Part shown: in pieces, positions 22,860 through 28,000 of the stretch
Layout of the letters: the number at the start of each line of letters is the position of its first letter
Position numbering within the stretch: position 1 is the first letter of the stretch
NCBI GenBank assembly: GCA_000004985.1
Contig: GG738845.1
Length of the DNA stretch: 64,000 bases
Direction: 5' to 3' (one strand)
Origin: Naegleria gruberi
Taxonomy: Eukaryota
Translations under genes and position numbers: made by a program
The notes under the pieces: generated by a model
What the model saw: the letters and a program-made list of their open reading frames with translations, nothing else
The model's database searches: none
Told to the model about the DNA's origin: nothing

Positions 22860-23213
22860 ATGAAACAAAACCTCTCTGCAGAACCCTCTACCGAACATAT
22901 TTTCCCAGTCTTTATTAACGCCCAACTTTTTAAACCTCTCTCAATTCAAAAACCAAAACGTTTACTCAAACGCTCTCCATCAATAATCACAACTGTCGAT
23001 GTGCAACATTTAGGAAGAGCCTTCTCTGCTCAATTAGTACTCCAGTTTAGAGGTGAGATTGACAATGATCTCATCTATAAGAATTTGATAAGAAAGGCTT
23101 TGAGACCTCTTAATCCGGAAGACTACAATCTAAATGTTCAACAATCAATTAGGGCATCTAGAGAACTTATTTCCAAGTTAAATGAAAATGTTACCACAAT
23201 GTTCTTTATTTAA
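22860..23213 (+). CDS. Hypothetical small basic protein (117 aa)
   Basis: ORF with ATG at 22860; no recognisable domain. Its stop overlaps the stop of the convergent gene 23210..24892. Confidence 0.3.
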   Translation: MKQNLSAEPSTEHIFPVFINAQLFKPLSIQKPKRLLKRSPSIITTVDVQHLGRAFSAQLVLQFRGEIDNDLIYKNLIRKALRPLNPEDYNLNVQQSIRASRELISKLNENVTTMFFI

Positions 23214-24892
23214 TAATTTGTTGATATTGGAGCTGCTAGAGCTGAGTTGATTGGATATGTATTTTTCGAACACTTGAATGTAGATCCTTTTTTGATCATG
23301 TAGTATGCTTTCTTTTGCTTTACCAGATCAACTCTTAAATCTTGTACCGCTTGATAGGACATGTGTGAATAGTCTCTAAAAAAGAAAATAGACCTCAAAA
23401 GTAAAACAGCACCAATAACAATTGAAGCAAAACGTAATTGATTTCTAATATTCCTGTAAATATTCTCATTCCAGATTAGTGAGTGTAATACTTTTTCTAT
23501 GATATAATTCACAGTAATTAACAAAAGGAGGTAAACTCTCGCCTTGCTAGTGCATTTTGTGCTTGTCAATAAGAATGACATAATTACTGAAAAGAAGTAA
23601 AAGAGAAACGATTTAAAGTCCATAAACTCTCCAATCAAAGTTGTGTAATTATGTGATATTCCAATAATCCCATCCAGAATTTCCCTTACATGTTCATGTT
23701 GCGCATTAATATTTTGAACGGTCTCTTGTGAGTTACTCAAAATTTCAACCAATGTTTTTTGTGCAGTTTTGAATAGATTGACCTGTTCACTTTTCAACTT
23801 ATCAATAAATATCTCATATTCTTTTTGTTTCTCCATTAAAATTTCTTGGTTTTTCATTGAAATTTCAATGTTGGATCCTATCTCGGTTGTATATTTTTCA
23901 ATAATGCCCAGCTTACTAGACGTTATTTGAGCTATACTATTCTGAAGATTTTGTAACAATTGTTGTCCTTTCAATAGCTTTTTTTGATTTTTCATAGATC
24001 TAACAGTGTTGTCACTAATAATACTTTGTTTTTCTTGGAATGAATTTAAAATGTTGAGAGTATGTTCTTGGTCTTTCCTTATTTTTGTTGAATGGGAGAT
24101 AGATTGTTCTAAAGATGTCACTAATTGCTGATTGGATTTGTCAATATGATTGAAACCATTTAAAACTTCTTGTCTCATCATTGATTGTTCATCTGAAATG
24201 AGTTTGGATTCTTCATATAAGGATTTCGACATTGAATGAATATGAGAAAATTCTTTTTTCAAGCTCTCATAAAACTCCAGCTCTAATTTTTTCATTAGCG
24301 AAAGTGCCTTGTCAAACTTGTTCTGCTCTTGCAAAATTCGGGTTTGAATTTCTTCTGAAAAGGAGAGAGTTTCCTTAATATTCATCGATTGCTCCTTTAG
24401 ATTTTCAATTTCACGGAGGGAGTTCTCTGTTTCATTTACCAATTGCTCCACTAGTCTCTCTGATTCTTCTTGAAAGGACTCTGATTTGATGTAGAAACAA
24501 ATTTGATCCACATGAGTGCTGAATTCAGTGTAAGCATTAAAAGCTATTGGAGATGATATCATGTCTTTTGTACACTCTTCTACAGTCATCATTTCAGTAC
24601 ACTCAAAGGTTTTCAGTCCAGATTTTGCTAAATGGCAGTTGGTTAATTGAATTGCAAGTTTACTTCTAATCTCTTCTCTTGTTTTAATTTCTTTGCATGA
24701 ACGAGTCATGGAATCAACAGCAACCTTCCAACAGTTCGACCAATCTGATTTAGCTTGATATTTTACTAACAAGGTTTTACCTTTGTCTTGTTGATCATGG
24801 AAATCTTGAATGTTGAAAATTGACCAACAGAAAACATCACTATTCAAACCAATAATGCAGATGGCTATTAGGGCTACTAATTGTTTGTTCAT
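23210..24892 (-). CDS. Secreted/membrane coiled-coil protein with N-terminal Cys-rich domain and C-terminal TM helices; KAR5/GEX1/Brambleberry-like architecture
   Basis: ORF 23210..24922; first ATG at 24892 (MNKQLVALIAICIIGLNSDVFC, a signal peptide). About 130-aa domain with 8 Cys (CWK..SCKEIKTREEIRSKLAIQLTNCHLAKSG..FECTEMMTVEECT..ICF). Long heptad-repeat region. Two C-terminal hydrophobic helices (FLFYFFSVIMSFLLTS..., FASIVIGAVLLLRSIFFF). The call rests on architecture only. Confidence 0.45.
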   Translation of the reverse strand: MNKQLVALIAICIIGLNSDVFCWSIFNIQDFHDQQDKGKTLLVKYQAKSDWSNCWKVAVDSMTRSCKEIKTREEIRSKLAIQLTNCHLAKSGLKTFECTEMMTVEECTKDMISSPIAFNAYTEFSTHVDQICFYIKSESFQEESERLVEQLVNETENSLREIENLKEQSMNIKETLSFSEEIQTRILQEQNKFDKALSLMKKLELEFYESLKKEFSHIHSMSKSLYEESKLISDEQSMMRQEVLNGFNHIDKSNQQLVTSLEQSISHSTKIRKDQEHTLNILNSFQEKQSIISDNTVRSMKNQKKLLKGQQLLQNLQNSIAQITSSKLGIIEKYTTEIGSNIEISMKNQEILMEKQKEYEIFIDKLKSEQVNLFKTAQKTLVEILSNSQETVQNINAQHEHVREILDGIIGISHNYTTLIGEFMDFKSFLFYFFSVIMSFLLTSTKCTSKARVYLLLLITVNYIIEKVLHSLIWNENIYRNIRNQLRFASIVIGAVLLLRSIFFFRDYSHMSYQAVQDLRVDLVKQKKAYYMIKKGSTFKCSKNTYPINSALAAPISTNY

Positions 24893-25089
24893 TTTTTTAA
24901 TGTTAATTGTAAAAAAGAACAAACTTACATCAATTAAACATTAATCTCCAACGAGTGGCAAATCTTTTTAAACACTTCTAAAGTTTGGTTGTTACACGAT
25001 GGATGGGAAAATGTATTTTTCAACAGTTCTAATGTTGGTCCTCTCTTTAGTACTCTTTTAGCCTTGAAAAAGTTAATTATGACTTCAAT

Positions 25090-28000
25090 CTAACAACTTA
25101 CATCAACATAAAGTGAAAGGTAGGTCCACATTAAGTTGGCGGAATAATACATGATGGATGTATTACCTTTGAGAAGTGTTGCTATTTTTAGAACTAAAAC
25201 ACACAATTCTTCCACTCTTAATATTAAGGTGCTCATACTTCTACAAAATAGTAGATTTCTGAATATTATAACGAGATATTCTTTCACTGCTTCGTTTGGG
25301 CTTTTTTCGAATTGTTCAAATAAATGGTCAATAGTATCAGATTGTAAGAAAGATTCATGGCAATCTTCAAAGAATGACAAATGAGACAACAGCTTTAAAC
25401 AGTATTCCATTCTTGTGTCATCTTTCTTCTTGATAAATATTTCTTTAAGACCATTGATGATTTTATCAACTAGTCCATACTTTAACATGGAATATCTAAC
25501 CTCTCCTGTACTAATCAGAGAACTTAATAACATGAAATAGGCATGACTATTAGTGAGCTTGCTTTTGGCTGATAATGATCCGCTAACAATATCAAGTAGA
25601 AGAGAATTGTTTTTGTTCTTGTTAATATCTTTTGCAAACTCAAGTTTGCTTCTCTCACAATTAGTGACCATATTTAGATAAACGTAAAGCAATGATAACC
25701 TTATTTCTGAGTCTGTAAAATCAGAGAACCAAATATATTTTAGATCTTGAAATAGGTTAAAGTCATTAGATACCTTCTTGGCATGGTTAGATAGAAATAA
25801 GTGTTGGAAAATGGAAAGGTTGAGGACAAGTTGATGTTTTAGCTTATCAATACTGTTACACTTTTCTGACCTGGAGGTGTGCATAAAATCGATAGAAAGG
25901 GAAGAAACAATCTTTCTGTTGAATGTACAATTACTCTCAATTATAGACTCTTGAACCTTTTCTTTTGTGGTTGTGTAAATGTTCAGAATCCAAGATAGAG
26001 ATTTACCAAGTATAAAACATTCCTCACAATCGATATTTGCAAAAAAGTTATCTTGACTTGAATAGTACAATCGTTGAATCTCGTCCACTATTTGCATCAC
26101 ATATTCATTTTCTCCTAGTTCAGAATTATATGGAAAACATTTTCTTCCAATTAGGGTTGTTACATATTTTGAAACTGTTATATTCACATTAATAGAGAGT
26201 GATGACTGGAGGGTAGCAGAAATAATTTTTAGAGTATTTTCCCTAGTTTTCAAATATTCTAGAGATAGATCATCATTTTTGGCAAATGCAACTAGATTAT
26301 TCATAATACAAAACGCTAATTCTATCAATTTGTCAGTTTTCTTAACTGTTAGTAATGTTCCAACAATCTTTTGTATATTATCCACCAATGTAGTGTCTCT
26401 GATCAGGTATGAAGCAATATCATTATTGTTTTGTATGATTTTCTTAACAACTTTCAATAAATTTTCTAAGGAATTATAAGAGATTGTTCCTAAATAGGCT
26501 ACATCCTCTAATTTTTGCAATATATAATTTAAAGAACTGTTTTCAAAGAGAACCTTACTCTGTGAAGATGGATCCCTCAGTAATAATTGATATATAAGAG
26601 CAGTTACAGATTCTAAATTTCTATCTCCTAGATTGAATAATTGTGGGAATGGAATACATTCCAAAAATCTATTCAAAGGCTCTGAGCTTAGAGAAATGTA
26701 TTTACATATTATCCAAATGCATTGATCCTTAACTATGTCAGTATCTGCGCTGGAAAGTTTGCTCACTATTAATTCTACCAGCTTTGGGTTTGATTTCTCT
26801 AACAGTCCAAAAGTTTCTTTGGTGTGCAATCCGTTCGAAATTATGCTGAAAATGCTCTCTCGTACATTAAAATTTTTCGAAAATATTAAAGAAAGAAATA
26901 TTTCGTGTTCTTTAACAATATCTATCCACGATATTTCGTATTTTCTTAATAATCCTGAAAGGGACTCTAACGACTTCAAACAAATGTGTTCGCAATGTGA
27001 CCCAAAACAAACTCCAGCTTCAAACGCTTCTCTTTCTTGTAAGAGTACTTGCAAAATATCTTCAAAAGTGGATTTCAATATCTCTAAACTATCAATAGAG
27101 AATATTTTACCACTCATTCCAATCCTACAAATACATCTTAACGAGTCTACTCTTAGATCATAGGGAATCTTCTTTTTGATAAAATTTCTTAGGGAAATAA
27201 GTAGCAACTCATCATTCAGTAATAATTTCAACTCATCTACACACTCTTCTTCCTGTAGGGATTGTGTGCAAAAATCTAAAAATTTCAGCATACAAGCCCT
27301 TAAGCTTGTACGATCATGAACCAGGTGATCTGTTTGGCTTGGTTGTAAAATAGTAATAAAGTTTTTGCAAAAACAATAAGAGAGTTCAGAAATCAAATCC
27401 CTCTCAAATCTCTTTTTTTTCGCTATTGTAGAGAAAAAACCTATTAAATTTTCCAAAACAAGATCATCTGCTTTGCTGGTAGGCGCTTTTTGTAAGAACT
27501 TGAAGATTACTCTTCTCCAGTCACTTTCACAAAAGATATCGAAACAATGTTCATCCATCATTAGAAAGTCCTGAAGAATTTGAAGATTTGTTAGGAATTC
27601 TCCATGACTTCTAGATTGTGAAAGCTTTAAAAGTGAGTTCTTAATAAAAATTTTTGGATGGATTTCATAAAGAACTTCAAATTGTTGGTCTTCTGAATTT
27701 TCGGTGAATGATTTGTTAAATTTGAAAAAATTCACTAATTCTGTTGAGTAGACTTTCGTATCACTTTCACATTCAATTTTGTAAAATGAGGAGTGTGGAA
27801 ATGTGTAAAATGATTCTGATATATTTTTTAGAATTGGATTTGCTTTCTCATTTGTTTCAAACACCATCTGTGTTTTGAATCCATTACTATTCCTTACATA
27901 TCTGTCCTTAGAAAACACTATTCTACTTAGAAACATAAAAGAGAGCTTTCTAACTACTAAATCAACATGGAAAAGTACTAAGGGAACTAAGAAAATAGAA

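Follow-up and report, generated by a model that had tools for sequence, protein, structure and literature searches.

The 64,000-nucleotide stretch of Naegleria gruberi DNA analysed here (from contig GG738845.1; hereafter the window) carries on its minus strand an uninterrupted open reading frame (ORF) for a protein of 560 residues, which is very probably the N. gruberi orthologue of the nuclear fusion proteins KAR5, GEX1 and Brambleberry (Bmb) and to which a function in karyogamy may be attributed from what is known of the family. The ORF runs from an ATG at 24892 to a stop codon at 23210–23212 (1683 nt, i.e. 560 codons plus stop), so that the interval 23210–24892 given for it in an earlier note, made from the sequence of the window without database searches, is exact; an in-frame TTG at 24922 merely lengthens the mechanical ORF. 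The re-checked translation matches XP_002683391.1 (EFC50647.1, NAEGRDRAFT_61156, D2UXK4) of N. gruberi from end to end, with 100% identity and coverage, from which it follows that this is a complete single-exon coding sequence. In the NCBI and UniProt records the protein is labelled only as ‘predicted protein’ or ‘uncharacterized protein’. P0203, which comes from a second N. gruberi-like assembly, is the same protein with one substitution.

The hallmarks of the family as listed by Rogers and Rose (2015; PMC4291462), who follow Ning et al. (2013), are a signal peptide, six conserved cysteines, one or two coiled coils and, at the C-terminus, two or three transmembrane (TM) segments, and this whole set (signal peptide, coil, TM segments and six Cys) is present in the Naegleria protein. 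The earlier note had named the same family but regarded its sequence conservation as weak and the call as architectural only. In this second respect it was too cautious, as sequence homology much stronger than it expected was found. By BLASTP the protein matches ‘protein brambleberry-like [Cyprinus carpio]’ with 39% identity over 119 residues (E = 9e-27), ‘GEX1 protein [Polyodon spathula]’ from paddlefish with 35% identity over 107 residues (E = 5e-23) and P0128, a homologue that is positive for the Pfam family PF04163, with E = 1e-32 over residues 57–519, that is from the Cys-rich domain (CRD) across the coil and past the last TM segment. A profile of the CRD matches ‘Gamete expressed 1 [Carpediemonas membranifera]’ with E = 2e-24 and also a Prymnesium protein with the UniRef name ‘Protein brambleberry’, and a search with the CRD alignment matched a GEX1-named protein with E = 1.9e-28; it should be noted that the brambleberry and GEX1 names of all these proteins are database or author annotations and not those of experimentally characterized proteins. 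Significant similarity in the CRD to recognized members of the family was thus found by more than one method. When five heterolobosean sequences were aligned with eight named or Pfam-positive members using hhalign, the probability was 100% and E = 2.8e-55, with both the CRD and the membrane region aligned. Together with the six invariant cysteines described below, the BLASTP and hhalign results support the identification of the protein as a genuine member of the KAR5/GEX1/Brambleberry family.

At the N-terminus a signal-peptide-like segment is formed by residues 1–22 (MNKQLVALIAICIIGLNSDVFC; 24827–24892, minus strand as for all features of the gene), which include the non-conserved C12 and C22. 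Its hydrophobic part covers residues 4–22, with Kyte–Doolittle values for 19-residue windows of up to 2.1 (residues 4–24), and the homologues from Acrasis, Willaertia and N. fowleri (P0206) have comparable hydrophobic N-termini. On hydropathy, therefore, the putative signal peptide that the family calls for, and that had been proposed for this protein, is present. The cysteines of the protein are at positions 12, 22, 54, 66, 86, 98, 107, 132, 447 and 541. The note’s count of eight Cys in about 110 residues is correct as a count, but C12 and C22 belong to the signal peptide and the mature CRD has six, which lie within 79 residues (C54–C132). Conservation, AlphaFold2 and BLASTP place this domain, which is predicted to be lumenal, at residues 50–140 (24473–24745). 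C54, C66, C86, C98, C107 and C132 are invariant in 51 out of 51 diverse homologues, whose alignment has no other invariant columns, and the same six are invariant or at least 90% conserved across 150 homologues; the six conserved Cys that characterize the N-terminal CRD of the family are thus all found here. Their spacing (12/20/12/9/25) is close to that in yeast Kar5p (12/23/14/11/25, C56 to C141). At residues 78–92 (24617–24661) lies the core family motif, KLAIQLTNCHLAKSG in the translation with the family consensus RLAxxLTNCHLxKSG, of which A80, N85, C86 and G92 are near-invariant in the 150 homologues. The AlphaFold2 model of residues 36–170 is all-helical, with a mean predicted local distance difference test score (pLDDT) of 90.1 and a predicted template-modelling score (pTM) of 0.74. 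No similar solved structure was found for the CRD fold in the PDB, and a phmmer search of the protein against PDB sequences gave no matches.

Between the CRD and the membrane anchor lies a long coiled coil of weakly conserved sequence at residues 141–420 (23633–24472), identified from composition, a heptad test and AlphaFold2, in keeping with the one or two coils found at this place in the family. Pro, Cys and Trp are absent from these approximately 280 residues, in which E, S, L, I, Q and K abound. Enrichment of hydrophobic residues at heptad positions a and d is 0.38 as against 0.277 ± 0.032 in shuffled sequences, none of the 200 shuffles reaching 0.38, which bears out the long coil that had been described from the translation. 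AlphaFold2 predicts two helices of about 150 residues each (115–264 and 274–419). The full-length AlphaFold2 model was poor (pLDDT 60, pTM 0.27) and was left out of the fold search.

The C-terminal region had been described as two closely spaced TM helices; hydropathy and AlphaFold2 indicate three hydrophobic segments instead (residues 426–444, 453–473 and 488–506), so that the two or three C-terminal TM segments typical of the family are predicted to be present. Segment 1 or TM1 (residues 426–444, FKSFLFYFFSVIMSFLLTS; 23561–23617; AlphaFold2 helix 426–442) aligns with the TM region of the PF04163 (Tht1)-positive P0128 and with those of the named family members. It is followed by a short basic loop, TKCTSKAR (residues 445–452; 23537–23560), which forms part of the conserved motif LTSTxxTxxAR and, with three basic and no acidic residues, is predicted by the positive-inside rule to face the cytoplasm or nucleoplasm. 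Segment 2 (residues 453–473, VYLLLLITVNYIIEKVLHSLI; 23474–23536; AlphaFold2 helix 446–472) is only moderately hydrophobic (mean Kyte–Doolittle 1.7 for residues 455–473) and contains two polar residues, N462 and E466, that are invariant among heteroloboseans; it is probably TM2, spanning the membrane. Segment 3 or TM3 (residues 488–506, FASIVIGAVLLLRSIFFFR; 23375–23431; Kyte–Doolittle up to 2.0; AlphaFold2 helix 476–503) is immediately preceded by R487. The protein ends in a basic, weakly conserved tail of 54 residues (507–560; 23213–23374) with eight K/R and three D/E, whose residues 534–560 have an AlphaFold2 pLDDT below 50 and which, should all three segments cross the membrane, is predicted to lie on the side of the cytoplasm or nucleoplasm. 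In the 69 full-length homologues, drawn from many eukaryotic groups, T443, R452, E466 and R487 are each at least 90% conserved. A second conserved module can thus be recognized at residues 426–506 (23375–23617), consisting of LTSTxxTxxAR and then a membrane-embedded N...E(K/R), and it is found from Naegleria to metazoans. The CRD has been described as the sole region conserved by sequence in the family (PMC4291462), a statement which has to be modified in the light of this module.

Homologues of the same architecture are present in N. lovaniensis (41% identity), N. fowleri (42%) and Acrasis kona (32%), and the profile search added orthologues in Willaertia magna, Heterolobosea sp. BB2 and Pharyngomonas kirbyi. 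Those from BB2 (P0008, GEZU01026885) and Pharyngomonas (P0019, GECH01010462) are transcriptome-assembly sequences, showing that the gene is transcribed in these two organisms. Among heteroloboseans identity is 63–71% in the CRD, 19–36% in the coil, 31–44% in the TM region and 11–35% in the tail, and the difference between CRD and coil indicates purifying selection on the CRD. A heterolobosean CRD profile run against 1.84 billion representative proteins gave 949 matches at E <= 1e-3, of which 443 had E <= 1e-10, a resemblance far above chance, and all 12 of the full-length matches that were inspected have signal peptide, CRD, coil and TM segments in the same order. Beyond the Heterolobosea the homologues come from Amoebozoa (Acytostelium, Balamuthia), haptophytes (Prymnesium), chlorophytes (Tetraselmis), Rhizaria (Paulinella), metamonads (Carpediemonas) and metazoans (Branchiostoma, echinoderms, Lingula, Ptychodera). 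A search with the 69-sequence full-length alignment was overwhelmed by coiled-coil words and recovered the three Naegleria proteins only; that with the CRD alignment returned mainly short fragments in addition to the named Bmb and GEX1 matches. The deposited models for N. lovaniensis (XP_044543496.1, P0002) and N. fowleri (XP_044557946.1, P0003) begin at an internal Met (MAWSFLGW...) and have no signal peptide. In P0206, the 608-residue N. fowleri protein of a different assembly, the N-terminus is longer by 32 residues and includes a hydrophobic signal sequence; both deposited gene models are probably 5′-truncated. Several database names are uninformative or misleading: the Acrasis kona homologue (KAL0487889.1, P0004) is labelled ‘2 TM domain-containing transmembrane protein’ and that of Balamuthia mandrillaris (KAL6079595.1, P0022) ‘TRP domain-containing protein’, and several homologues of metazoans, those from Branchiostoma, sea urchin, starfish, Lingula and Ptychodera, are labelled ‘uncharacterized’.

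The assignment of XP_002683391.1 as Gex1/KAR5 has been known since 2021, when supplementary file 4 of Salas-Leiva et al. (2021; PMC8516963) placed Ngru_XP_002683391.1 in the row Gex1 / Nuclear fusion / KAR5 together with Arabidopsis Q681K7, Dictyostelium Q54JR8 and T. brucei Q38EN8. A search of main-text literature for the accessions gave no match, the earlier assignment being found in the supplementary table only. The surveys of Ning et al. in 2013 and Speijer et al. in 2015 may have included the Naegleria protein earlier.

Several observations weigh against the protein being a karyogamy factor of this family, and they concern both its membership and its function. As regards membership, PF04163 (Tht1-like), the profile that had been suggested as a check, gave no match to the Naegleria protein even at E <= 10, and a Pfam scan yielded only noise (DUF1163, E = 0.04; Mce4_CUP1, E = 0.057). 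Among the 69 full-length homologues one, P0128, matched PF04163 at E <= 0.01 (29.4 bits, with a gathering score of 21), and when 20 homologues were scanned at E <= 0.1 a sub-threshold match in the CRD was obtained for P0086 (12.8 bits). As only one of the 69 homologues is matched, and as the database records of proteins named brambleberry or GEX1 list no Pfam domains, the PF04163 model is a narrow one. The link between it and the Naegleria protein is, as far as the alignments go, transitive via P0128 (E = 1e-32); because PF04163 failed here and leaves most homologues unmatched, the protein is filed under the wider KAR5/GEX1/Bmb family and not under the Pfam model. The lack of a direct PF04163 match and of a structural match in the PDB, together with the proneness of coiled coils to spurious similarity, could be taken to mean that the resemblance is architectural only and that this is an unrelated secreted or endoplasmic reticulum (ER) coiled-coil membrane protein whose Cys pattern is due to chance. 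However, the similarity is located in the CRD and TM region, outside the coil, and in view of the E-values and the hhalign probability given above, the six invariant Cys and the orthology assignment in PMC8516963 the chance of this being so is negligible; a generic coiled-coil protein with a fortuitous Cys pattern is effectively refuted by the BLASTP matches (carp, Polyodon, P0128) and by hhalign. The other point against membership is that a 2023 pangenome paper (PMC9928731) counted the GEX1 of N. gruberi, N. fowleri and N. lovaniensis as ‘not recovered’. Judging from the sequences this absence is a detection failure, since all three species encode clear orthologues.

As regards function, neither a sexual stage nor karyogamy has been seen in Naegleria (PMC9928731), and members of the family may act outside sex, Brambleberry being involved in karyomere fusion in zebrafish (PMC4291462), so that the gene does not in itself prove a sexual cycle. 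Since the BB2 and Pharyngomonas sequences were obtained from assembled transcriptomes, expression in these organisms may moreover not be restricted to gametes. The protein could on these grounds be a member of the same family with a non-sexual task in vegetative fusion of the nuclear envelope, for example merging the nuclei of multinucleate cultured amoebae, or resealing or merging envelopes after mitosis, as Brambleberry works in mitotic karyomere fusion besides pronuclear fusion (PMC4291462, PMC7586128). Against this, the sexual phase of yeast, Chlamydomonas, Plasmodium and Arabidopsis both induces and requires the family (PMC7586128), Naegleria has HAP2, the meiotic toolkit and population data that suggest recombination (PMC9928731), and a vegetative role in N. 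gruberi received no expression support in the present analysis; we regard such a role as unlikely. The failure ever to observe sex in Naegleria, and the fast divergence among heteroloboseans of the coil (19–36%) and the tail (11–35%), might alternatively suggest a non-functional relic of a lost sexual cycle. This is highly improbable, given that three Naegleria species and four other heteroloboseans have an intact ORF, that all six Cys and the membrane motif LTSTxxTxxAR...N...E are kept and that CRD identity is 63–71%. A pseudogene would not be expected to retain so much over divergences of this depth, and this reading was rejected.

The co-occurrence of HAP2 and meiotic genes, proposed in the earlier note as a further check, is borne out by the report of both for Naegleria in PMC9928731, and an orthologue acting in karyogamy would, by virtue of its family, suggest a capacity for nuclear fusion and sex in Naegleria. 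How it might act can be sketched from its relatives. Kar5p, Bmb and GEX1 are located in the nuclear envelope with most of the protein in the lumen (PMC4291462, PMC7586128), and from the signal peptide, CRD and charge distribution we infer the same location for the Naegleria protein, with its bulk lumenal. Judging from Kar5p (PMC4291462) and GEX1 (PMC7586128), the signal peptide would direct it to the ER, with which the nuclear envelope is continuous. The CRD and long coil would then lie in the oxidizing perinuclear lumen, where the six Cys would be able to form disulfides, and the basic tail and short TM1–TM2 loop would be exposed to the cytoplasm or nucleoplasm. In yeast, Kar5p accumulates at the site of fusion, links the outer nuclear membrane with the inner one and is needed for fusion of the inner membrane; its conserved Cys and coils are essential and its lumenal domains possibly interact in trans (PMC4291462). 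By analogy the Naegleria protein would gather at the contact site once two nuclei meet after cell fusion, couple the outer and inner membranes and promote their fusion, that of the inner membrane especially, with trans-oligomerization via the lumenal coil and CRD as a possible means. In Naegleria this step would bring karyogamy to completion, downstream of the gamete fusogen HAP2, in a sexual cycle that has yet to be observed. It is also conceivable, and we put it forward with little confidence, that the conserved core of the family is not the CRD alone, that the membrane module is its second part and that the intramembrane polar pair is the active element of the long-sought inner-nuclear-membrane fusogen and/or that the protein serves vegetative nuclear merging in multinucleate amoebae of Naegleria and not sex alone. 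If this were true the gene would be more than an entry to be ticked off in a list of sex genes.

KAR5/GEX1 and HAP2 are the two genomic markers widely used for the capacity for cell and nuclear fusion and hence for cryptic sex in protists. A KAR5/GEX1 protein in N. gruberi is consistent with the existing picture, made up of HAP2, the meiotic toolkit, heterozygosity and recombination signals, and adds little to it as the orthology of XP_002683391.1 was tabulated in 2021. The gene is an ordinary, under-annotated member of the sex toolkit, and the practical value of the result lies in corrections to annotation: the ‘predicted’ and ‘uncharacterized’ names of the Naegleria proteins, the Acrasis and Balamuthia misnomers, the probably truncated gene models and the absence of GEX1 stated in 2023. 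As a candidate reporter of an undiscovered sexual stage in Naegleria, including the pathogen N. fowleri, the gene is likewise a good choice.

The window is nuclear DNA with a GC content of approximately 30–37% (in steps of 2 kb) and is dense in mostly intronless ORFs. Around the gene lie housekeeping or signalling genes that are unrelated to it (LisH/WD40, a Ras-like GTPase fragment, TPR, COQ7, ribosomal uS5, a P-type ATPase, Sel1 and LRR), and no cluster of sex genes was found among them in the window. A convergent ORF of 117 residues (22860–23213, plus strand), the end of which overlaps the 3′ end of the gene by 4 nt, and an ORF of 948 residues (25090–27936) on the same strand as the gene and 197 nt upstream of it both have no Pfam match. 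Among the more distant relatives there is a short metagenomic subfamily of 170–213 residues (P0178, P0180–P0187, P0189, P0192 and P0196) that retains the CRD core CW..A..SC...LALAFTNCHL.(Q/E)SGRP ... MSDATFAIYTEFFTHT..LCFHLQGEH but has neither the loop bearing the fourth and fifth conserved Cys nor the long coil, and has a hydrophobic stretch about 30 residues after the CRD. One short-form locus (L001:10001–10642, plus strand) lies on a 36.6-kb contig of approximately 54% GC with very long intron-free ORFs, in which the genes around the short-form copy contain no confident Pfam domains; the source of this contig may be a picoeukaryote or a virus.

When the Naegleria protein is compared with the characterized systems, Brambleberry is the closest named match by sequence (the carp brambleberry-like protein, 39% over 119 residues of the CRD), and full-length homologues from deuterostomes and a brachiopod (Branchiostoma, sea urchin, starfish, Ptychodera and Lingula) are among the top profile matches. 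Bmb serves not only pronuclear fusion but also the fusion of karyomeres in cleavage-stage embryos, a setting that differs from that in Naegleria, where mitosis is closed. It also has two TM domains (PMC7586128) as opposed to the three hydrophobic segments of the Naegleria protein. GEX1 of plants, Chlamydomonas and Plasmodium resembles the Naegleria protein in having a signal peptide, a six-Cys CRD, coils and three C-terminal hydrophobic segments, which would put the C-terminal tail outside the lumen (PMC7586128), as is predicted for Naegleria. The two differ in that sequence similarity is low beyond the CRD and the TM-loop motif, and in that the middle hydrophobic segment of the Naegleria protein is only moderately hydrophobic and contains the conserved Asn and Glu. 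With Kar5p of S. cerevisiae and Tht1 of S. pombe the Naegleria protein shares the order of domains and a nearly equal spacing of the six Cys. Kar5p relies at the spindle pole body on Prm3p and Mps3p, which are fungal partners, and has its C-terminus in the lumen because it ends directly after TM2 (PMC4291462), unlike the tail predicted for Naegleria. Tht1, like the Naegleria protein, has an additional hydrophobic segment beyond the Kar5 pair (PMC4291462). As it comprises three hydrophobic segments, the predicted anchor of the Naegleria protein is therefore of the GEX1/Tht1 type and not of the two-TM type of Kar5 and Bmb.

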